Source: Stegostoma tigrinum
Taxonomy: Eukaryota
DNA: 64,000 nt
NCBI RefSeq assembly: GCF_030684315.1
Contig: NC_081379.1
Location: 42,530,381 to 42,594,380 of the forward strand
Direction of reading: 5' to 3'
Positions within the stretch are counted from its first letter, which is position 1; every line of letters starts with the position of its first letter. Made by a program: the position numbers and the translations under genes. Under the pieces are notes generated by a model that made no database searches, had not been told where the DNA came from, and saw only the letters and a list, made by a program, of their open reading frames with translations. Shown here piece after piece: positions 12,620 to 61,719 of the stretch.

Positions 12620-14248
12620 TTGTTGAATACTGAGATACAGGCTATTAGACTAGACGGGATTGAGGTTCAGAAGGCAATTCTGAAAAGTGTGAAAACAGAT
12701 AAGTCCCCTGGGCTGGATGGGATTTATCCAAGGATTCTCTGGGAAGCTAGGGAGGAGATTGTAGACCCTTTGGCTTTGGTCTTTTTGTCATCAATGTCTA
12801 CAGGAAGAGTGCCAGAAGACTGGAGGATAGCAAATGTTGTCTCCTTGTTCAAGAAGCGGGGGAGGGACAACTCTGGTAATTATAGACCAGTGAGCCTTAC
12901 TTCAGTTGTGGGTAAAGTGTTGGAGAAAATTATAAGAGACAGGATTTATAATCATCTAGAACGGAACACTTTGATTAGGGATAGTCAACACGGTTTTGTG
13001 AAGGGTAGGTCATGCCTCACAAAACTTCTTGAGTTCTTTGAAAAGCTGAATAAACAGGTGAATGAGAGTAAAGTGGTTGATGTGGTGTATATGGATTTCA
13101 GTAAAGCTTTTGATAAGCTTCCCCATGGTAGGCTATTGCAGAAATATGGATCACGGGATTGAGAGTGATTTAGCAGTTTAGATCAGAAATTGGCTAGCTG
13201 TAAGAAGACAGAGGGTGGTGGTTGATGGGAAATGTTCATCCTGGAGTTCAGTTACTAGTGGTGTACCGCAAGGATCTGTTTTGGGGCCACTGCTGTTTGT
13301 CATTTTTATAAATGACCCAGATGCGGCCGTACAAGGATGGGTTAGTAAATTTGCGGATGACACTAAAGTTGTTCGAGTGAAGAGTGTGGAAGGATGTTGC
13401 AGGTTACAGAGGTACAGAGATAAGCTGCAGAGCTGGGCTGAGAGGTGGCAAATGGAGTTTAATGTGGAAAAGTGTGAGGTGATTCACTTTGGAAGGAGTA
13501 ACAGGAATACAGAGTACTGGGCTAATGGTAAGCTTCTTGGTAGTGTGGATGAGCAGAGAGATCTCGGTGTCCATGTGCATAGATCTCTGAAAGTTTCCAC
13601 CCAGGTTGATAGGGTTGTTAAGAAGTCATATGTTGTGTTAGGTTTTAATGGTAGATGGATTGAGTTTTGGAGCCATGAGGTCATGTTGCAGCTTGTCAAA
13701 ACTCTGGTGCGGCTGCACTTGGCGTATTTCATACAGTTCTGGTCGCCACATTATAGGAAGGATGTGGAAGCATTTGAAAGGGTGCAGAGGAGATTTACCA
13801 GGATGTTGCTTGGTTTGGAGGGAAGGTCTTATGAGGAAAGGCGGAAGGACTTGAGGATGTTTTCATTAGAGCGAAGAAGGTTAAGAGGTGACTTAATAGA
13901 GACATACAAAATGATTAGAGGATTAGATAGGGTGGACAACGAGAGCCTTTTTCCTCAGATGGTGATGGCTAGGATGAGGGGACATAGCTTTAAATTGAGG
14001 GGTGATAGATATAGGGCAGATGTCAGAGGTACACTCTTTACTCAGAGAGTAGTAGGGGTGTGGATTTCCCTGCCTGCAACAGTAGTAGACTCTCCAAGTT
14101 TAAGGGCATTTAAATCGTCATCGGATAAACATATGGATGATAATGGAATAGTGTAGGTTAGATGGGCTTCAGATTGTTTTCACAGGTCGGCGCAACATCG
14201 AGGGCTGAAGTGCCTGTACTGCGCTGTAATGTTCTATGTTCTATGTTC
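12620..14248 (+). mobile_element. CR1 LINE, 5'-truncated (RT part of ORF2 + 3' tail)
   Basis: KSPGLDGI, NYRPVSLTSVVGK, GVPQGSVLGP and FADD motifs. Frameshift near 13150. (TATGTTC)n tail. Confidence 0.93.
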
Positions 14249-19214: not shown

Positions 19215-20149
19215 ATGGATGCTAGGGCAGTTGCTTGCTCCTCCTGCAAAATGTGGCAGTTGGGAGATGTGGCACACGTCTCCGCTGGCTACATCTGCGG
19301 GAAGTGCACCCAGCTACAGCTCCTTGAAAACCGTGTTAGGGAAATGGAGCTGGAGCTGGATGAACTACGGATCATTCGGGAGGCAGAGGGGGTAATTGAG
19401 AGGAGTTATCGGGAGTTGGTCACTCCTAAGGCTCAGGACGAGGATAGATGGGTTACAGTTAGGGGGAGGAAAGGGGACAGACAGACAGTGCAGAGATCCC
19501 CTGTGGGCATTCCCCTCAGCAATAAGTATACCGTTTTGGATACTGCTGGGGGGGTTGACCTACCAGAGGAAAGCCATAGTAGTCAGTTCTCTGGCACTGA
19601 GCCTGACACTGTGGCAAAGAAGGGAAGGGGGCAGAATAGAAAAGTACTCGTGGTAGGGGACTCGATAGTTAGGGGAATCGACAGGAGATTTTGTGGGCAA
19701 GATCGGGATTCCCGGAAGGTATGTTGCCTCCCTGGTGCCAGGGTCCGGGACGTCTCCGATCGGGTGTATAAAGTTCTGAAAGGGGAGGGTGAACAGCCAG
19801 AAATCGTGTTACATATTGGCACAAATGATATAGCCAGAAATAGGTTTGAGGATATAAAAAGTGATTTCAGGGAGTTAGGATGGAAGCTGCAGAGCAGGAC
19901 GAACAGAGTAGTGTTCTCTGGTTTACTACCGGTGCCACGAGATAGCGAGGTGAGGAACAGGGAGCGGGCGCAGCTGAACACGTGGCTACGCAGCTGGTGT
20001 AGGAGGGAGGGTTTCAGATATGTTGATAATTGGGATGCCTTCTGGGAAGGTGGGACCTGTACAAGAAGGACGGGTTGCATCTGAACTGGAAGGGGACCAA
20101 TGTCCTGGGTGGAAGGTTTGCTCGAGTAGTTCGAGAGGGTTTAAACTAG
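19215..20149 (+). CDS. CR1 ORF1p: Cys zinc finger, coiled coil, SGNH/GDSL esterase domain (one-base frameshift at about 20045)
   Basis: MDARAVACSSCKMW..YICGKC, LENRVREMELELDEL, VVGDSIVRG, LHIGTND. Restoring one G in TCTGGGAAGG gives FWGRWDLYKKDGLHLN...EGLN* (TAG 20147-20149). Confidence 0.85.
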
Positions 20150-23038
20150 TATGGCAGGGGGGTGGGAACCTGAGCTGTATACCAGAGGTGAGCGTTGATG
20201 CAGGTGAGGCAGTAGCAAGAGGTAGACCAGCTAGTGGGAAGGATTTTCCTGGGAAGGAACCAAGGGATCGGTTAAAGTGTGTTTGCTTTAATGCAAGGAG
20301 TATCAGGAATAAAAGTGATGAACTTAGAGCATGGATCAGTACCTGGTGCTATGATGTTGTGGCCATAACAGAGACATGGGTTTCTCATGGGCTGGAATGG
20401 TTGCTCGATATTCCAGGGTTTAGAACATTTAAAAAGAATAGGGAGGGGGGAAAAAGAGGAGGGGGTGTAGCACTACTAATCAGAGAGGGTATCACAGCTA
20501 CAGAAGCTTCCATTGTCGAGGAAGATCTGCCTACTGAGTCAGTATGGGTGGAAATTAGGAGCAGCAAGGGAGTAGTCACCTCGTTAGGGGTTTACTACAG
20601 GCCCCCCAATAGCAGCAGGGAGATTGTAGAAAGCATAGGTCGACAGATTTTGGAAAAGTGTGGACGCAGTAGGGTTGTTGTAATGGGTGACTTTAACTTT
20701 CCTAATATTGATTGGAACCTCCTTCGAGCAGAAGATTTGAATGGAGCTGTTTTTGTAAGGTGTGTTCAGGAGGGTTTCCTAACGCAGTACGTTGACAGGC
20801 CGACGAGGGGAGAGGCCATTCTAGACTTGGTGCTCGGAAACGAGCCGGGGCAGGTATCAGATCTTGTGGTGGGAGAGCATTTTGGTGATAGTGACCATAA
20901 CACTCTCTCATTCTACATAGCTATGGAGAAGGAGAGGATTAGGCAGAATGGGAGGATATTTAATTGGGGAAGAGGAAACTATGATGCGATTAGACACGAG
21001 TTAGGAAGCATGGACTGGGAGCAGTTGTTCCATGGTAAGGGAACTATAGACATGTGGAGATGGTTTAAGGAACAGTTGTTGGGAGTGATGAGTAAATATG
21101 TCCCTCTGAGACAGGCAAGACGGGGTAAGATAAAGGAACCTTGGATGACGAGAGCGGTGGAGCTTCTAGTGAAAAGTAAGAAGGTAGCTTACATAAGGTG
21201 GAGGAAGCTAGGGTCAAGTTCAGCTAGAGAGGATTACATGCAGGCAAGGAAGGAGCTCAAAAATGGTCTGAGGAGAGCCAGGAGGGGGCACGAGAAAGGC
21301 TTGGCAGAAGGAATCCGGGAAAACACAAAGGCATTTTACACTTACGTGAGGAATAAGAGAATGGTCAAAGAAAGAGTAGGGCCGATCAGGGATAGCATAG
21401 GGAACTTGTGTGTGGAGCCTGAGGAGGTAGGGGAAGCCCTAAATGAGTTTTTTTGCTTCTGTCTTTACGAAAGAAACGACCTGTGTAGTGAATGAAACCT
21501 TTGAAGAGCAGGTGTGCATGCTGGAATGGATAGAGATAGAGGAAGCTGATGTACTGAAAATTTTGTCAAACATTAAGATTGACAAGTCGCCAGGCCCGGA
21601 TCAGATTTGTCCTCGGCTGCTTTGGGAAGCGAGAAATGCAATTGCTTCGCCACTTGCGAAGATCTTTGCATCCTCGCTCTCCACTGGAGTCGTACCTGAG
21701 GACTGGAGAGAGGCAAATGTAATTCCTCTCTTCAAGAAAGGAAATAGGGAAATCCCCGGCAATTATAGACCGGTAAGTCTCACGTCTGTCGTCTGCAAGG
21801 TGTTAGAAAGGATTCTGAGGGATAAGATTTATGACCATCTGGAAGAGCATGGCTTGATCAAATACAGTCAACACGGCTTTGTGAGGGGTAGGTCATGCCT
21901 TACAAACCTTATCGAGTTTTTTGAGGATGTGACTAGTAAGGTTGATGAGGGTCAAGCTGTGGATGTGGTGTATATGGACTTCAGTAAGGCATTTGATAAG
22001 GTTCCCCATGGAAGGCTCATTCAGAAGGTCAGGAGGAATGGGATACAGGGGAACTTAGCTGCTTGGATACAGAATTGGCTGGCCAACAGAAGACAGCGAG
22101 TGGTAGTAGAAGGAAAATATTCTGCCTGGAAGTCAGTGGTGAGTGGGGTTCCACAGGGCTCTGTCCTTGGGCCTCTACTGTTTGTAATTTTTATTAATGA
22201 CTTGGACGAGGGAATTGAAGGATGGGTCAGCAAGTTTGCAGACGACACAAAGGTCGGAGGTGTCGTTGACAGTGTAGAGGGCTGTTGTAGGCTGCAGCGG
22301 GACATTGACAGGATGCAGAGATGGGCTGAGAGGTGGCAGATGGAGTTCAACCTGGATAAATGCGAGGTGATGCATTTTGGAAGGTCGAATTTGAAAGCTG
22401 AGTACAGGATTAAGGATAGGATTCTTGGCAGCGTGGAGGAACAGAGGGATCTTGGTGTGCAGATACATAGATCCCTTAAAATGGCCACCCAAGTGGACAG
22501 GGTTGTTAAGAAAGCATATGGTGTTTTGGCTTTCATTAACAGGGGGATTGAGTTTAAGAGTCGTGAGATCTTGTTGCAGCTCTATAAAACTTTGGTTAGA
22601 CCGCACTTGGAATACTGCGTCCAGTTCTGGGCGCCCTATTATAGGAAAGATGTGGATGCTTTGGAGAGGGTTCAGAGGAGGTTTACCAGGATGCTGCCTG
22701 GACTGGAGGGCTTATCTTATGAAGAGAGGTTGACTGAGCTCGGTCTCTTTTCATTGGAGAAAAGGAGGAGGAGAGGGGACCTAATTGAGGTATACAAGAT
22801 AATGAGAGGCATAGATAGAGTCGATAGCCAGAGACTATTTCCCAGGGCAGAAATGGCTAGCACGAGGGGTCATAGTTTTAAGCTGGTTGGTGGAAAGTAT
22901 AGAGGGGATGTCAGAGGCAGGTTCTTTACGCAGAGAGTTGTGAGAGCATGGAATGCGTTGCCAGCAGCAGTTGTGGAAGCAAGGTCATTGGGGTCATTTA
23001 AGAGACTGCTGGACATGCATATGGTCACAGAAATTTGA
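20140..23038 (+). CDS. CR1 ORF2p: apurinic endonuclease + reverse transcriptase (one-base frameshift at about 21450)
   Basis: FNARSI, AITETW, YYRPP, MGDFN, SDHN (APE) and QGSVLGP, FADD (RT). ORFs 20020-21495 and 21443-23038 join across a T run. Confidence 0.88.
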
Positions 23039-23136
23039 GGGTGCATCCATGAGGATCAATGGTCGGCACAACATTGTGGGCTGAAGGGCCTGTTCTGTGC
23101 TGTACTGTTCTATGTTCTATGTTCTCTAACGCGCTT

Positions 23137-23203
23137 ATGCAAATCCAATTTGAGCCTGGCTGGGGTTGCTGTTGGCTGATATCACGTGGTTATAGGTTTG
23201 CAT
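23137..23203 (+). promoter_or_regulatory. Ig light-chain promoter elements: octamer ATGCAAAT (23137-23144), E-box CACGTG (23183-23188), variant octamer GTTTGCAT (23196-23203)
   Basis: Lies 105-170 bp upstream of the leader ATG. The homologous block in pseudogene 2 has CACGTG + perfect ATTTGCAT. Confidence 0.75.
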
Positions 23204-23307
23204 GAATCATTAAAATTCAGTGACATCGCCAGGTTTGTAGATACTTAACAGGAGGTTTGGAAAGATCCCAGAAGCTCGCTATTATGCCAGGCACTAGAAC
23301 CTTCACC

Positions 23308-23356
23308 ATGAATGAACGGGTTGGAGTTCTCGCCGCACTGATGCTCTGTCTCCACA
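23308..23356 (+). CDS. IGL: Ig lambda (type II) light chain gene 1, leader exon
   Basis: ACCATG start, MNERVGVLAALMLCLH, phase-1 donor GTAAGT at 23357. Confidence 0.88.
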
Positions 23357-23504
23357 GTAAGTAGGCATGTGAATATGCCCTATAGCTGCTTTTAACGTTG
23401 CTCCTTGTTGGTGTTGTCACTCTTGCGTTAACTGCCATGAGCTAAACTAAGACAATATTCGTAATTGCAACGTGTGATTGACCTCTGAGTTGTCGCTTCA
23501 CCAG

Positions 23505-23846
23505 GTGCATGCGGGGATCCTGCTCTGACTCAGCCAGGTTCCGTCTCAACATCCCCGGGGAAGACTGTGAAGATTACCTGTACCGTGTCCGGAGGAAGCA
23601 TCGGCAGCTACAGCACGAGCTGGTACTGGCAGAAACCCAGGAGTGCCCCGGTGTTGATTTGGGACGAGTACGATGAAACTGCTTCGGAAATTCCAGATCG
23701 ATTTACAGGGTCTGTGGACTCATCGAATAACAAGATGCATTTAACCATCACCAACGTACAGCCGGAGGATGCCACCGATTACTACTGCGCTGTAGCAAGT
23801 AGCGGAATAGCTACATTCGGGAAAGGAACCAAACTGAACCTGGGCG
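23505..23846 (+). CDS. IGL: Ig lambda (type II) light chain gene 1, germline-joined VJ exon, open
   Basis: Acceptor CCAG, DPALTQPGSVSTSPGKTVKITC..WYWQKP..DYYC AVASSGIAT FGKGTKLNLG, phase-1 donor GTAAGT at 23847. No RSS between V and J. Confidence 0.95.
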
Positions 23847-25863
23847 GTAAGTAAATTTTTGGTCACCTGCGCACCAAGTGTCGCTTTGAGTTTGACATTT
23901 TTGTGGAAAATCACCGAATCCCAAAACACCGGCCCGAGTCTCGCCCAGGAATTGTATCCGGAGCCTCAAAGCCCCGGTTCAACCATTCAAAACACTAATT
24001 ACAATTTTCGCTCGATGCCTTTTTCATTCGAGTGAAAACAGCGCCGCGATATAAGCGCCGTTCCAAGTGTGAGACTGCGAAGCCATCTCTAAGCAATGAA
24101 AATCGCTCAGTCCAAGATTCTCACATTAATCCCAAGGGCTAGCAGGAACTTTTTTTTTGCGTTGCTCTCAGCCAGTTTGATCAACGCTAATCCAAATTCT
24201 GCGTTAACGCAGTCACAGCCAGGATCTCTCAGAATACGGTCAGATTGTTGATCTGAGACTGGCAACTCTGCTGTGAGCTACACGCGCTGTTGTGACTGAC
24301 TTTGGAACTTACTGTCATAACCAACTGTAGCGTTTTAGTTTCTAGATCACTAACTAGAAAAAGGACTGTTTTAATCTTCGGATTATGTACACCGTTTCAC
24401 TCAGTGTTTGCAGCTGTACGGTATCGGCGCGAAAGGTTATTTACTTACAGAAGAAACGATAAAAATCCTGCTTTGAAATTGTTACAACGGGGTTACAATT
24501 TATAGTCAGCACTATGAGAATAATTCTGTTTAATCAGAAGCAAGAGAATAAACTGGTTGCTAAACGCTACATCGTATACAAGCTTGAAGGCAGTTGGGAA
24601 CCGGTTGTTGGGACTGGGTAGGGGTGCAGGAGGGGAGTGTGCTGGTAGTGACCGGATGAGCGGAGATAGTGCCCAAAGAGAGAGAAAGACAGCTAGGCAG
24701 ATAAAAGGGTGGATATTCATATGTCAAGGGGAAAGACAAACTCATAATGGGGACCATAAATAAGTGCAGATGGGTTGGCAGGACAGAAAGAAGCTCAAGG
24801 AACTCAGAGTTGGTGTAACACAACCTCGGGACAGGTCAGTGGCTGTCAATGCACACGCTAGAAGTGCTGCGCGTATGTTTCTGTGGCGTAACATACGCGA
24901 GACCGTGCACCGGTGGACAGCGTTGTGACAGCGAGCTGCTGTGGTTGGCGGCATTGTCTAAGGGATCGCTTTTGCCAGGTCATTGTGTTTGCATTTCGCC
25001 GACAGTGACTGATTATGCTTATTCAATATGGTTACAATGTTGGCAAACATTTCTTGGAAACTCATTCGCTTTGGTGAAATGGTTTTTTTAATCGCCGTGG
25101 ATGTCTCCGATTTTTGTATTTCGAACGCGAGGGGAGAGCCCTCTGCGATTTTCCAGTGCTGTCGCCGACAAGGATGGGAGCGGAAAAAGGTGCAAACGAA
25201 TAATAGAGCTGAGCCTTAGGAATAGTAGCTGTACAGAAATACAGATATCATCCTAAAAAGCCCACATCCACACCTAACCTCTACCACTAAAAATAAGCGA
25301 AGCACGCAAGAATCAAGATGACAGTGGGATTTATGGAATAAATGTTGCAAAATGTTGTCTTAGCAGCATTGGTTCCAGGTTTTATACCAAATTCTAATTT
25401 GCCGGTTTTTACCTTGTTTCTAATCCTCGGGTCCTGGGACACTGTGACAGGCCGCGTCAGAGCAGTATATTTGAACGGGCTGCTGAGATCCCGTCTTATT
25501 TTAAACAGGACTAAAAACTGGCGATGCAGAAAATCTGAAACAAAAACAGAGAGTTGTTGAAGAAACTCAGCAGGCCGTATCTGTAAAGAGAAAAACAGAA
25601 TTGACATTTGGAGTTCAATGACTGCGAGGTTTACTCTGCTGTTTTTCTCCAACACTCTTATTGTCCAGTATTATATATTTTCCGTTTTAACATTTTCTCA
25701 CGTTGAAGAATCTTCATTTTTTAACGTTACAGTTAGTAACAGTAAAACCATCTTCTCGGGTTATATCCTCCCTAGAGCTGCGGGTCTCAGTTTCTCCGAT
25801 TTGAAAAAAAAGTAAAATATTAACTCCACTTTTAAGCCAATTTCATTTCTTTCTACATTACAG

Positions 25864-31659: not shown

Positions 31660-33900
31660 CCATTACTTGACCTCATTCTGACCTGCTTGACCTCATTCTC
31701 ACCAATCTGCCAGTTGCAGAAGCGTTTGCCCATAACGGTATCCATAAGAGTGACCACCACACAGTCGTCGTGCAGACGAAGTCCCGCCTTCACGTTGAGG
31801 ATGTGTTGTATGCCACAATCACCCTACTAAAGGTGAAAGACTTAGAACGGACCTATCAACTCAAGGCTGAGCATCCATGAGGCGCTGTGAGTCATCAACA
31901 GCAGCAGAATTGCACTCCAGCACAATCTGTAGCCTCGTCACCCAGCATATTCCCCAACCCTGGTTCAATGGAGAGTGCAGGAGGGCATGCCAGGGTCAGC
32001 ACAAGGCATACTTGAAGATGAGGTATCAACTGGTGATGCCAACAAACAGGACTACTTGCGCGCCAGACCGCATAAGCAGCAAGTGATAGATCGAGCTAAC
32101 AAATGGATAACCATCCACAACCAGCTCAGCTTTGCAGTCGTGCCACATCCTATCATGAGTGATTGTGGGCAATTAAACAACTCACTGGAGGAAGAGGCTC
32201 CGCAAATATTCCTGTTCTCAATGATGGAAGAGCCCTGCACATCAGTGCAAAAGATAAGGCGGACGCTTTTACAGCAATGTTCAGCCAGAAGTGCTGAGTG
32301 GATGATCCATCTCGACCTCATCCAGTGGTCCACATATTACAGATACCAGTCATCAGTTAATTCCGTTCACTCCACGTGATATCAAGAAACGGTTGGAGAC
32401 AATGAACACTAAAAAGGCTACAGGACCTGACAAAATTCCGGCAACTGTACTGAAGACTTGTGCTCCAAAACTTGCCAGTCCCCAGCCAAGCTGTTCCAGT
32501 ACAGTTACAGCACTGGTATCTAGCCAACAAGGTGTAAAATTGCCCAGGGATGCCCTGTACATACAAAGCAGGACAAATCCAATCCAGCCAATTACCACTC
32601 CAACAGTCTACTCTCAAACAACAGTAAAGTGATGGGAAGTGTCATCAACACTCTTTTCAAGTAGTAACTGCTCAACAATAACTTGATCAGTGATTCCCTG
32701 TTTGGGTTCTGCCGGGGCCATTCACCTCCTGACGTCATTACACCCTTGGACCAAACATGGATAAAAGATCTGACTTCCACAGTTGAGGTAAGAGTGACAG
32801 CCCTTGACATGAAGGCTGCAATCGACTGCATGCAGCATCAGGAAGCCTCGGCAAAACTTGAATCCTTGGGTATCAGGGGACAAACTCTTGGTGCTTGGAG
32901 TCATACTTGACAAAGAGGAAAATGGTTGTGGTTGGATGATGTCAATCATCTCAGCTCCAGGACATCTCTGGAAGTGTTCCTCAGGATAGTGTCCGAGGCC
33001 GAACCACCTTCAGCTGCTTCAACAATTATCTTCCCTCCACCATAAGGTCACAAGTGGAGATGTTCACTGATGATTGCACAATGTCCAACATCACTCCTCA
33101 GATACTGAAGCAGTCCATGTTCAAATGCAACATGACCTGGACAATATCAAGGCTTGAGCTTACAAGTGGTAAGTAACATTCGCACCACACAAATACCAGG
33201 CTAAGTCCATTGCCAATGAGAGATAATCCAACCACTGCTACTTAGCATTAAATGGTGTTACCATCAATGAGACTTCCATTATAAATATCCTGGGGGCTAT
33301 CATAGACTAGAAACTCAACTGGACTCACACATAAAGACAGTGGCTACAAGTCCAGGTTAGAGATTAGGAATACTGTAGCGAGTAACTCACCTCCTGACTC
33401 CTCAATGTTTTGTCCGCCATTTTCAAAGCCCACGTCAGGAGTGTGATGGAATGCTCCTCACTTGCCTGGATGAGTGCAACCCCAACAATACTCAAGAAAC
33501 TCGACACCTTCCACGACAAAGCACCCTGCTTGATTGGTGCCACATCCATTAGCATCCATTCCCTCCACCACCTGCCCTTCAGTAGCAGCAGTGCATACCA
33601 TCTACAGGATGCACTGCAGAAATTCACCAAAGATCATCAGACAGTACCTTCCAAACCTATGACCACTTCCATCAAGATGGACAAAGGCAGCAGATATTTG
33701 GGAACACCACCATCTTCAATTTTTCCTCCAAGCTACTCACTATTCTGACTTGGAAATATATGGCCATTCCTTCACTGTCTCTGAGTCAGAATTCTGGAAT
33801 TCCCTCCCTAACGGCATTGTGGGTCATCCCACAGCAGGTGGACTGCAGTGGTTCGAGAAGGCAGCTCACTAGTATCTTCGGAATGGCGAACAATAAATGT
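31660..33900 (+). mobile_element. Degraded CR1/L2-clade LINE ORF2 remnant
   Basis: KATGPDKIPATVLKTCAPKLASP, LFGFCRGHS, ALDMKAAID, VPQDSV..P and FTDD motifs with many stops. Confidence 0.8.
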
Positions 33901-35850: not shown

Positions 35851-36470
35851 CACGTGATTACAGATTTGCATAAATCATTCACATTCAGTGACTTTGCCAG
35901 GTTTGTAGACACTTAATGGGAGGTTTGGAAAGGTCTCAGATATACATTATTATATCAGGCACGAGAACGTTCATCCACAGCCTGGAGTTCTCTCTGTCTC
36001 CCCAATAAGAGATGCAAACCTCTATTGCTGCATTTTTACATTGATCTGTATTTTATAATGTTTGCGTCAGAGTTTAATGCCTTGAGTTATGAATAACTTT
36101 CGCAATGGAAAAGTGCAATTGAGCAAATGCTTCTTATTTCACTAGGCTCAAACGGGGACTTTGTCCTGACTCAGCCGGGATTCACCTCAACATTCCCGGC
36201 GGAAACAGCGAATATCACCTGCACCATGTCCGGGAGCAACATCGGCTGCTAATAAACCAGCTGGTACTGGCAGAAAGCCGGCAGCGCCCCAGTGTTGGTT
36301 TGGAGTGAGTACTCCGGAATTCCACTAGGTATTTCAAATCTATCCAGTGGGCCCGTGGATTCGTCAAGTAACAGGATGTACTTCACTATTACCAACGTGC
36401 AATCAGAGTAGCCGCTGATTATTTCTGTTGTGGATTACACTTTCGGGAGAGGAGCCAAGTTGGGCCTTCA
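35851..36470 (+). pseudogene. Ig lambda (type II) pseudogene 2: promoter, decayed leader, joined VJ; no C exon seen
   Basis: CACGTG at 35851 and ATTTGCAT at 35864-35871. Leader ATG and donor lost. VJ exon 36146-36470 (DFVLTQPG..NITCTMSG..WYWQK..FGRGAKL) has TAA TAA at 36250-36255 and a frameshift near the second Cys. Confidence 0.9.
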
Positions 36471-36488
36471 GTAAGTAAATAATTGACA

Positions 36489-38508: not shown

Positions 38509-38610
38509 TAGAACATAGAACATAGAACATAGAACAGTACAGCACAGAACAGGCCCTTCAGCCCACAATGTTGTGCCGACCATTGATCCTCATGTATGCA
38601 CCCTCAATTT
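38509..38610 (-). mobile_element. Very short 3' end of the young CR1 family
   Basis: Nearly identical to the reverse complement of 23030-23125, including the (TAGAACA)n tail. Confidence 0.85.
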
Positions 38611-39299
38611 CTTTTTCGTTGTAGATGTCAAAGTGAATCGTTCAGAATGCAGATAGATTATTCCTCTGAGGCGGGCAATTCTGGTGCTGGTAGGATGCGC
38701 TGATATGGCTGTCATTAAAACTCAATGCCAGAACAAAGTGTAGCGGTTCAGCGTCTACATCAACGATTAGAAAACGTATTTTCATCTTTGCCTCAGATTA
38801 AATAAACCATTTCACTCAGTGTTTATCTCTTCCCTAAGTCGGTGCTAAGGTATATTTAAAAATATAGGAAATAACGACATTCTTGCTGTGACTTTTACAA
38901 CGGGCTGCATCATGAGAATAAATTTGTATAATGAGGAGAAAAAAATAAAGATGCGGCAGATGTTGTTGAAGTCCGTAACACGACCTCAGGCCACTCAATA
39001 CCGTCAATGATAATAAATGGCTCAGCAGGAGTCTGTACCATCTGCAAGATGGACTGCAGGGACTCACCAACTTTCCATGGACATTATTTTCAAAACGCTC
39101 CACCAATACTATTTAAATGGACAATTCCACCACCTGCAAGATCCCCTCCAAGTCACTCACCATCCTGACTTGGAAATGTACCGCCTTTCCTTCACTGTCA
39201 TTGGCTTAAAGTGTTAAAGTCATGGAATCTTCTTCCGTGTGTGTCGAACTACAGTACAAGAACTGCAGCGGTTCAACAGACAGCTCACCACCACTTTAA

Positions 39300-39855
39300 G
39301 ACCACAAGACATAGGTGTGGAAGTAAGGCCATTCGGCCCATCGACTCCGCTCCGTCGTTTAATCATGGCTGATGGGCATTTCAACTCCACTCTCCCCGTA
39401 GCCCTTAATTACTTGCGAGATCAAGAATTTATCGATTTCTGCCTTGAAGACATTTAACGTCCCGGCCTCCGCTACGCTCCGTGGCAATGAATTCCACAAG
39501 CCCACCAGCCTCCGGCTGAAGAAATGTCTCCTGATTTCCGTTCTAAATTTACATCCTCTAATTCTAAGGCTGTGCCCACGGGTCCTAGTCTCCCCGCCTA
39601 ACGGAAACAACTGCCCAGCGTCTACCCTTTCTAAGCCATACATTATCTTGTAAGTTTCTATTAGATATCCCCTCAACCTTCTAAACTCTAATGAGTGCAA
39701 TCCCAGGATCCTTAGCCGTCACGTTAAACCTACCATTCCAGGGATCATCCGTGTGAATCTCCGCTGGATACGTTCCAGCGCCAGTATGTCCTTTCTGAGC
39801 TGTGGGGCCCAAAATTGGACACAGTATTCTAAATGGGGCCTAATTAGAGCTTTCT
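39300..39855 (-). mobile_element. CR1 3' fragment
   Basis: Minus-strand peptide SLEFRRLRGYLIETYKI..TRGHSL..LWNSLP. Confidence 0.85.
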
Positions 39856-41451
39856 CAGCGGAAATTAGGAACGGCTAATAATTGCTGGTTAGCCAGCGAC
39901 AGCACATTACTGACTCAGCACAAAGAGAAGTATTTCAGAAGAGCAGAGACCGCTGAAATGGAAAAAGAGCTGCAGATCAGTTGAACACAGTAAGGACCTC
40001 TAAACAGCCCTGCGATACTGAGCAGCTTATTTTAGAGAGACAGAGTCGACCAGTGTATGTTTGAATTTAATACTTGCAAATTAAAGTTAGATCGGGGATA
40101 ACAATATCCAAAGTGGACTTAATCGGTTAATATGACAGAGGTTACTCTTTGGAAAATACTTTCTTTTCGAAACTGTATCTTTTGGTACTCTGGCACCACG
40201 GATATTTTTGATTCTCATACCTCAAATGCGTTAGGAGGGCCCTATGCAATTTGCCAGAGCATTCTCGATAACAGGCGGGCGGTATTAAGGGATGATCAAT
40301 ATGCCGAACTCTTAAGCAGTTGATTACTTCCATCAACAGAAGATACAGATGAAACCAACTCAGATTTTCAGAGAAATGTTTTAAAATCCTGCATCAAGCT
40401 TATCACTGACTCAATGAAGCATATATTTAGTACATAATCTTCTTTCTTTAGATTGACTGAAGTATACAACTTCTACACTAGAAGTAGATGAGAAATTTGA
40501 GACAGCTGTCTCAAGTGTGAAAAAATTGGTTAATACCTAATGAAACGTGCGAGGGTTTTGTGAGACTTTTACAGAGCTGTGTTCAGCGATGGCACCATGC
40601 AACAAAAATTATACTGAAGCACTGAAGGTGTGAAAAATTGTTGCAAGATAATTAGGAGAATTGAGGTTTCATAATTAAATAGATAGATGCACTATCTCCT
40701 TTCTGAAAAATAAAGGACTGAATAGTTTTAACAATGGACTCGAACATAATGAAAAACTGAAGCAGAGGACTCAAAAAATCAAATTCCGCTGTGGTTGATT
40801 CCAAAGCAAGGAGCTGTTAACAAAAAGGTGGCTACCCTTAATTGGTTCAAGCTTTACCTTCTCCAGAAGTATGAGTAATAACGTTTCTGAACAGGTGGAT
40901 TACAAAAGGAGGTTAAAACAATAAAGCTAACCTATTCTCGCTCCCTACCTCCCCTCACTTTTGATGGTTCGTATTGTCCACAACAGACTCATAAATATTC
41001 AGTTGGCTACGCTGGTGTTCTACTTGTGTGCAATGACACAACCTACTGCTCAATGTTCACCCCCTCTCAGTCCCAGGCGTGTGGAGACCGCATGGTCAGT
41101 AGGTTAAAAGCGTTAGGCTGACCACGCTTGGGCTGCTGGTGGTACAGTGTTAGTGTCCCTACCTCTGAATTAGGAGAACCTGGGATCAAGTCCTACCTGC
41201 TCCAATGGTTTCTAGTCAGGAACTGGTTAGAAATATCTATTGAGCAAACCCAGTGGATGCCCTTTTTAAAATTAAGTATCGAAACGAATGGAAATTAATT
41301 CAAACTCAGTCAGCACCGTCATAGGGGTCAACGCAATTTCTGTCGAACTGTTTCAGCAAGTCCTGAATTAGTCTAGGATCTAAACTGTCACTTTTACTAA
41401 CGTCTGAGGAGCCAATTCGAAGGATCCAATTACAAGCCGCGACGTGTAACA

Positions 41452-42143
41452 ATTTGCATAAATAGGTGGGACTTGCCATGTAGATATTCTTAAAGACAGG
41501 TTGAGAAGTCGCCGTATCATTAAGATCAAGGATATTAGGTTCCATCAGTGGGGAAACATTTTGTCTTAACTTTGATTTCAAAAATCTACAAAATGAGGGA
41601 GTGGCTTCGTGTTCTCCTCGCCCTGCTAATTGGTTTGCAATGTACGTACGCCACTGTCAATCACTATTTTTTTAGTTCTCTTTGTATTGCTGTTCTTGGC
41701 ATGATTCTGATGATTACAGTAATTGATGTGGTTGAAACTGAATTACATCATTCGACAGCGGTTTCGAGGACTGCCGTTTGACATTAACTTCTTATTTTGC
41801 CAGGTGCTGACGCTGAAACCGTGCTGTCCCAGCCAGGGTCCATCTCAAGCTTGTTGGGGAAAACGGTCACGATTACTTGTTCGGAGGCAGAGTAGCCAGC
41901 TACCGCACGGACTGGTACTGGCAGAAACGCGACAGCGCCCCCGCCTGTGTTTGGAAGGATTATGTTTCTAGCAGAGGCGCTGGGATTCCTGTTTGATTCA
42001 CTGGGCCCAGGGACACGTCGAGTAACCTGATTCGTCTAACTATTTCCAATGTACAGGCCGAAGATGTCGCTATTATTGCGGCGCTTGGCATGCCACCTAT
42101 GGTGGATTCACTTTCGGGAAAGGGACGAAACTGAGTGTGGGCG
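41452..42143 (+). pseudogene. Ig lambda pseudogene 3: octamer, leader (41593-41641), joined VJ (41804-42143)
   Basis: ATTTGCAT at 41452-41459. Leader MREWLRVLLALLIGLQ. V ETVLSQPGSISSLLGKTVTITC, then frameshift, in-frame TGA and a second frameshift. Junction YYCGAWHATYGGFTFGKGTKLSVG + GTAAGT. Confidence 0.9.
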
Positions 42144-61575: not shown

Positions 61576-61719
61576 NNNNNNNNNNNNNNNNNNNNNNNNN
61601 NNNNNNNNNNNNNNNNNNNNNNNNNNNNNNNNNNNNNNNNNNNNNNNNNNNNNNNNNNNNNNNNNNNNNNNNNNNNNNNNNNNNNNNNNNNNNNNNNNNN
61701 NNNNNNNNNNNNNNNNNNN
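61576..61719. other. Assembly gap (N run) next to a (CA)n tract
   Basis: Run of n bases. Confidence 0.99.

Follow-up and report, generated by a model that had tools for sequence, protein, structure and literature searches.

A conserved, in-phase slippery heptamer at the ORF1-ORF2 junction of a shark CR1 retrotransposon and its likely role in programmed -1 frameshifting

Introduction

How ribosomes reach the second open reading frame (ORF2) of a long interspersed nuclear element (LINE) has been called an open and important question (PMC3894237), and the two elements studied in detail, L1 and SART1, rely on reinitiation. We meet this question at a CR1 element in a stretch of 64,000 nucleotides (nt) of the Stegostoma tigrinum genome (assembly GCF_030684315.1, contig NC_081379.1, positions 42,530,381 to 42,594,380 of the forward strand), which is referred to as the window and numbered from its first letter. 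The subject is of general relevance, as most chordates have CR1-group elements as their dominant retrotransposons (10.64898/2026.01.13.699120). A preliminary description of this DNA had pointed to the heptamer U UUA AAC at the end of ORF1 and had proposed that the element produces an ORF1-ORF2 fusion by -1 frameshifting. A comparison of the junction with related loci and proteins leads us to the view that the heptamer is a conserved family signal of the junction of esterase-type CR1 elements, which likely drives programmed -1 frameshifting into such a fusion. From the comparative data we give this reading a probability of roughly 0.8.

The element and its junction

The features on which the argument is built are listed below.

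19215..20149, plus strand: CR1 ORF1, starting with the ATG at 19215, with two CxxC motifs near the N-terminus, an SGNH esterase domain and the family end ...REGLN-stop
20044..20046, plus strand: G run one base shorter than in the family form, a private lesion (a G is inserted behind 20043 in all four runs)
20140..20146, plus strand: slippery heptamer U_UUA_AAC (TTTAAAC), in phase with the family ORF1 frame and kept in relatives
20147..20149, plus strand: ORF1 stop codon TAG, abutting the heptamer
20140..20271, plus strand: linker in the ORF2 (-1) frame, 44 codons without ATG; no stop in the ORF2 frame, three and four stops in the other two frames
20151..20153, plus strand: ATG out of frame with ORF2, unconserved (A to T in the majority of run X9)
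20153..20170, plus strand: G-rich segment, candidate 3' stimulator, with a G6 run at 20157-20162; encodes G-x-G in the ORF2 frame
20272..23038, plus strand: ORF2 with endonuclease (Exo_endo_phos) and reverse transcriptase (RT; RVT_1, 122.6 bits)
23039..23126, plus strand: 3' untranslated region with terminal short repeats of the TTCTATG type and no poly(A)

The ORF1 product of the element is 99% identical to P0001, a protein named for Stegostoma tigrinum, and matches the Lipase_GDSL_2 domain with 40.5 bits (cut-off 32.9); its relatives come from sharks, rays, frogs, turtles and birds. Like the vertebrate CR1 LINEs with an esterase ORF1, the element combines an SGNH esterase in ORF1, an APE-type endonuclease and an RT in ORF2 and a 3' tail of short repeats without poly(A), the last being a feature of CR1. 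Judged by this anatomy and by the turtle and bird relatives of its ORF1 it is probably a CR1 LINE, with the reservation that an esterase ORF1 can be carried by CR1 as well as by L2 elements (10.64898/2026.01.13.699120). A target-site duplication longer than 7 nt was not found around the element.

The copy in the window is broken twice. Because a G is missing near 20044, the long ORF1 frame starting at ATG 19215 stops early at TGA 20082-20084, and the final 33 codons, ending GGT TTA AAC TAG, stand in a different frame. The extra G is found in run X1 with a depth of 89,242/131,603 and is present too in X9, X10 and X15 (all four runs are assembled contigs, and the RNA origin of X15 is a guess), and P0001 is uninterrupted across the position of the lesion through to ...REGLN. 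The second break is a change of the ORF2 frame at the T7 run 21448-21454. The copy is a dead fossil of the family design which cannot use the slippery site itself, and the finding therefore concerns this design and not a working locus. As to the end of ORF1, the heptamer and the TAG are located where the preliminary description had placed them; ORF1 ends there in the family, not in the window copy.

Two further statements of that description were confirmed. The -1 frame reads TTT AAA CTA GTA TGG at the junction and is free of stops through the endonuclease domain (Exo_endo_phos in Pfam, 64.7 bits) as far as 21495, and the first ATG of the ORF2 frame past the junction is only found at 20683 (VMGDFN). 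The ATG at 20151 was rejected as start of ORF2, since it is in the wrong frame, is variable (TTG in most of X9, with T for A in 64,505/92,805) and has no listed indel that would restore the frame: among the 40 of 137 variable places that are listed for the runs, no indel at a frequency of at least 5% lies between the junction and 20450. The ATGs at 20020 and 20035 were likewise rejected, as they are in the ORF2 frame solely through the deletion of the window copy.

The heptamer as a word is common by chance, with nine copies of TTTAAAC on the plus strand of the window and 14 words of the shape X_XXY_YYZ, in any phase, in the ORF region. Therefore, the case rests on phase and conservation. Natural ORF1-ORF2 read-through proteins are represented by P0041 and P0088, and their junction F-K-L-x-x-x-G-x-G matches the -1 frame of the window.

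Conservation of the heptamer

In a scan of metagenomes, an alignment of 30 ORF1 proteins yielded 58 loci, 22 of which reach the junction; the remaining 36 were excluded from the counts, as the junction was not reached or the end of ORF1 could not be placed. Together with the window these loci form a set of 23 junctions, in which the labels bird-like and more distant were assigned by protein similarity alone. Twelve loci were placed blind, that is, ORF1 proteins without their last four residues were projected onto the DNA.

A strict X_XXY_YYZ word stands in phase at the end of ORF1 in 21 of the 23 junctions (17 TTTAAAC, two TTTTTTA, one TTTAAAT and one TTTAAAA), and the blind-placed loci have the heptamer in 10 of 12 cases. 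Its first T, which is a third codon position, is T in all 23 junctions, and TAG or TAA follows directly in 16. In the two distant lineages L029 and L041 the word is T TTT TTA and is located one codon ahead of the stop, and in L030 two codons separate heptamer and stop. The swap in the former two and the offset in the latter indicate that the phase of the heptamer stays constant, while its letters and its spacing from the stop can vary. The preliminary description had named a conserved ORF2 start next to an unconserved heptamer as the outcome that would contradict its proposal, and we find the opposite: no stretch of the junction is better conserved than the heptamer, and no ATG is shared between the lineages.

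Agreement at four-fold degenerate third bases of the endonuclease is at chance level, both between the window and 13 loci (76/291) and among seven distant lineages with 35-60% protein identity (129/432). With synonymous sites outside the heptamer no more alike than by chance, its conservation is not accounted for by recent descent. In the shark-like runs, 83 contigs in X1, 89 in X9 and 99 in X10 have a match which starts at 20135 and are unlike the sequence before, and the match of 43 X1 contigs ends behind 20170; this points to a short island of conservation at the site in diverged subfamilies. No relatives were detected in viral contigs and genome contigs by scans or in plasmids and phages by BLAST; a single 32-residue match, L059 (E 7e-4), was set aside as chance.

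The ends of the ORF1 proteins fit into this picture. Among 113 homologues 70 have an assessable end, and 67 of these end with Leu-Asn; 91 of 150 representatives of 50% clusters are assessable, with 54 Leu-Asn and nine Gly-Asn ends. The residue before Leu-Asn is one for which a T-ending codon exists in 65/67 homologues and 53/54 representatives, the background share of the residues K, Q, E, M and W in this test being 16.5%. Gly-Asn is preceded by Gln in eight of the nine representatives, as the heptamer G GGA AAC requires. The heptamer G UUA AAC, the variant of equine arteritis virus (PMC5009743), would suit the few ends with Glu-Leu-Asn.

Entry into ORF2

The endonuclease is in view at 15 junctions, and in 12 of them an open linker of 32-84 codons leads to it in the -1 frame; this arrangement applies to the window and 11 of the 14 loci with the endonuclease in view. 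Six of the 12 intact linkers contain no ATG. Across the seven distant lineages, the ORF2 frame of the linker is free of stops and the other frames are interrupted by several, with the exception of one frame of L005; shuffles of these linkers are open in 0.1-12% each. Upstream of the heptamer the -1 frame is closed within at most two codons in 12 of the 23 junctions. The open linker in combination with this closure argues that the linker is translated and that entry takes place at or just after the heptamer. The N-termini of 120 ORF2 proteins are the output of gene callers and are not indicative of the true starts.

Sequences downstream of the heptamer

The G-rich stretch that had been noticed about 6 nt downstream indeed begins 6 nt after the heptamer (20153), with the G6 run 10 nt after it (20157). 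In 17 of 22 junctions a G-rich run begins 9-11 nt after the heptamer, a pattern that was chosen after viewing; as the run also encodes G-x-G, RNA and protein constraint are inseparable. Four of the five junctions without a G-run have a hairpin beginning 7-11 nt after the heptamer (z -4.5 in L041, -4.0 in L036, -2.0 in L038 and -1.4 in the fourth; 22 junctions folded), and L029 has neither G-run nor hairpin.

Some other structures were considered as well. A three-tier quadruplex was rejected, because the site has no match and its G4Hunter score of 1.36 is attained by 1.7% of the windows of the element. In the subfamily of L037 (4510-4562), L008 and L043, a stem between the G-run and a C-rich stretch that closely follows it is predicted near the usual distance of a stimulator, but it is no better than in shuffles (z -1.3 to +0.4). 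A recurrent hairpin 28-53 nt after the heptamer was observed in six bird-like loci (L001, L006, L009, L013, L017 and L049); it was dismissed as stimulator, as it shows no two-sided compensatory change and is too distant for a standard stimulator. Rfam gave three matches with E-values of 0.18-3, all under the gathering score and none at the site.

Discussion

The fusion by -1 frameshifting that had been proposed for this junction is supported by the phase and the conservation of the heptamer and by the motif swap, as far as sequence comparison can support it. In such a mechanism most ribosomes would end at the TAG and release the ORF1 protein (ORF1p). In a minority, the Leu-tRNA on UUA and the Asn-tRNA on AAC would slip back by one base onto UUU AAA, and these ribosomes would bypass the stop and read through the junction ...E-G-L-N-L-V-W-Q-G.... 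The resulting fusion would comprise about 1,270 residues. The pause would likely result from the abutting stop codon together with an element about 10 nt downstream, which may be the G-run in shark and bird-like elements and a GC hairpin in several of the more distant lineages. As a protease domain was not seen, the fusion would stay whole. It is a matter of speculation that it could enter the ORF1p particle via its ORF1 part and thereby set a low ratio of ORF2 to ORF1 in the manner of Gag-Pol.

The closest likeness is to viral U_UUA_AAC cassettes of the coronavirus ORF1a/1b type and to retroviral gag-pol, which share an upstream ORF that ends with the heptamer, a polymerase ORF in the -1 frame and a 3' element at a short fixed distance, the element of CR1 being a candidate. 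U_UUA_AAC and G_GGA_AAC are among the most shift-prone heptamers on mammalian ribosomes, and viral spacers are mostly 5-9 nt long within a range of 3-14 (PMC5009743). In contrast to the viral cassettes, no stable stem was found at the shark site by folding of secondary structure and the G-run is located 10 nt downstream; furthermore, the CR1 stop abuts the heptamer, a protease is not seen and the host element is a non-LTR (long terminal repeat) retrotransposon. Among APE-type non-LTR elements, TRE5-A and TRE3-A of Dictyostelium are said to require a -1 frameshift for ORF2 according to the figure legend of a review (PMC5911963), a claim that is not repeated in the accessible text of PMC5006619. 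These elements belong to another clade and have another type of ORF1, and the statement in the review comes with neither a heptamer nor a measurement. For LINEs of Paramecium, +1 frameshifting or reinitiation has been suggested (PMC5405496). The UAAUG coupling of SART1 and the reinitiation of mammalian L1 are similar in that a bicistronic LINE RNA is used and ORF2 depends on the translation of ORF1; however, both yield a separate ORF2 protein (ORF2p), whereas the CR1 junctions have no shared AUG and keep a phased heptamer instead.

A frameshift proposal for the CR1 junction was not found in the literature searched, with subscription papers mostly outside reach. Descriptions of chicken and turtle CR1 from the 1990s reportedly noted closely spaced or overlapping ORFs and may already mention frameshifting. 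The mechanism as such is known, and the novelty would be its occurrence in the CR1 clade, for which we found no report. The word frameshift does not occur in the accessible main texts of 10.64898/2026.01.13.699120 and PMC4120745, where the translation of ORF2 is not discussed, and CR1 does not occur in the searched text of PMC5009743; the search also included the accessible parts of PMC1965478, PMC4255032, PMC4700185, PMC10275272 and PMC2881922.

Could ORF2 be translated by termination and reinitiation instead? In analogy to SART1 and L1, ribosomes would restart at an ATG 2 nt past the TAG or independently of AUG and make a separate ORF2p, with the conserved letters and the G-run acting as signals for the restart. 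Seven of the 23 junctions, all bird-like (L001, L002, L004, L006, L011, L037 and L049), in fact have an in-frame ATG 2 nt past the stop, L003, L008, L009 and L043 have GTG or TTG at the same codon, and the near-cognate CTG 20170 and GTG 20188 are in frame within the shark linker. The frequent contact of stop and heptamer would also suit a restart, and in the accessible literature the translation of L1 ORF2 is described as AUG-independent and SART1 as needing a downstream RNA structure. On the other hand, the codon in question is TGG, TCG, TCC or CCG in the window and six loci (L005, L013, L014, L017, L031 and L033) and Leu, Ser or Asn in named ORF2 proteins of ibis, stork and lizard (P0117, P0150 and P0147), and close relatives of the ATG-bearing junctions read TTG, GTG, TCG or TGG, so that the in-frame AUG at the ORF1 stop which is typical of the SART1 stop-start arrangement is absent from the window and restricted to the seven junctions mentioned. 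Moreover, reinitiation predicts neither the X_XXY_YYZ word nor the swap to T TTT TTA nor the Gln-Gly-Asn ends, and the variable distance between heptamer and stop (0, 1 or 2 codons) is at odds with it. For this reason we regard reinitiation in place of frameshifting as unlikely; both may coexist in bird-like subfamilies.

It is also conceivable that ORF1p needs Leu-Asn at its C-terminus, that the heptamer is a by-product of codon choice and that ORF2 is expressed by other means. Every one of the 30 aligned ORF1 proteins, the rows of which were picked after the ends had been viewed, has this Leu and Asn, and TTA and T-ending codons are common in AT-rich lineages. Yet TTA, with a share among Leu codons of only 9% for the window element and 10% for the loci, is used at the heptamer in all 19 junctions reading TTTAAA-N. 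Given the residues, the codon choice has p values of 0.011-0.035 in the window, L004 and L029, and the probabilities over seven lineages multiply to about 2e-7, if the lineages are independent. Other lineages end with Phe-Leu-x or Gln-Gly-Asn. We consider protein constraint or coincidence very improbable. Slightly less credible still is a joining at the RNA level, with the AG of TAG as splice acceptor or with slippage of the polymerase by plus or minus one base, either of which would fuse or free ORF2 with no slip of the ribosome. The CTAG behind a T/A run in most junctions would be compatible with it, but L037, L038 and L043 have TAA as their stop, a pyrimidine tract is missing, and the runs comprise 3-6 bases compared to the nine cited for bacterial transcriptional slippage (PMC5009743).

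Frameshifting itself also has to be weighed against a number of unfavourable points, to which the in-frame ATGs of the bird-like junctions belong. All evidence for it is comparative, and the sharks are represented by one junction as continuous DNA and by the 40 of 137 variable places mentioned above. Blind placement does not apply to eleven junctions, which are the window, five loci placed by the first stop after the ORF1 match and five placed by eye, the latter with indels or lost stops. L009 and L011 are without the heptamer and the linker is broken in three of 15 junctions, which we read as probably decayed copies. Four AT-rich lineages use codons that their residues would lead one to expect (p 0.27-0.56), and therefore few lineages carry the codon argument. 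As regards the protein ends, 20 of the 91 representatives have no slip-compatible tripeptide, and control windows score 4-46/91, so that the count of 71/91 at the true ends is not clean; in addition, the Leu-Asn columns were part of the search profile, which biases it towards such ends, and the rows are related. The reading of the Gln-Gly-Asn group as G GGA AAC is drawn from protein sequences. Finally, the folding and quadruplex predictions that the preliminary description had suggested for the shark site gave little: no stable fold was found (z -0.04 for +4..+53 and -0.85 to +0.88 for six stretches), and a two-tier quadruplex at 20153-20166 is the only one predicted, in the longer of two stretches (ViennaRNA).

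A wider reading can be put forward tentatively, although we are inclined to doubt it in its full extent. In esterase-type CR1 LINEs, from sharks to birds and in more distant animals, the RT might be made only as an ORF1p-ORF2p fusion, the frameshift might be older than the split of the jawed vertebrates, and the vertebrate stimulator might be a G-run at the mRNA entry channel in combination with the abutting stop and not a stem or pseudoknot. If this is true, a major clade of animal LINEs follows a Gag-Pol strategy and possibly provides a natural G-rich or quadruplex stimulator of frameshifting, which was anticipated but not known according to a review of 2016 (PMC5009743). A conserved -1 frameshift as such would already make the CR1 enzyme a fusion to ORF1p, with consequences for the annotation and cloning of CR1 ORF2, and this could help to explain cis-preference and the ratio of ORF1 to ORF2.

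Neighbourhood of the element

The surroundings of the element contain the following features.

23137-23850: immunoglobulin (Ig) light-chain-like gene with V and J pre-joined; leader ATG at 23308, V-J at about 23507-23848, followed by a GT donor
36146-36475 and 41879-42058: two more pieces resembling Ig V, which share 42% and 40% identity with the first
12632-14248 (plus strand), 39410-39868 (minus strand), 38517-38612 (minus strand) and 32354-32898 (plus strand): other LINE fragments, RT or 3' ends only
61576-61719: assembly gap of 144 N

The element ends just upstream of the Ig V-set gene. The octamer ATGCAAAT is located at 23137, about 11 nt past the CR1 tail, and this short distance places the element in the promoter region of the Ig gene. 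The Ig V-like piece at 36.2 kb has an in-frame stop and is pseudogene-like. Two shark-type CR1 proteins, P0008 and P0115, are filed under Pseudomonas aeruginosa and Carnobacterium maltaromaticum, respectively, which likely reflects host DNA in bacterial assemblies. Among the LINE fragments of the window, the one at 38.5 kb matches the 3' end of the CR1 element described here with 98% identity.

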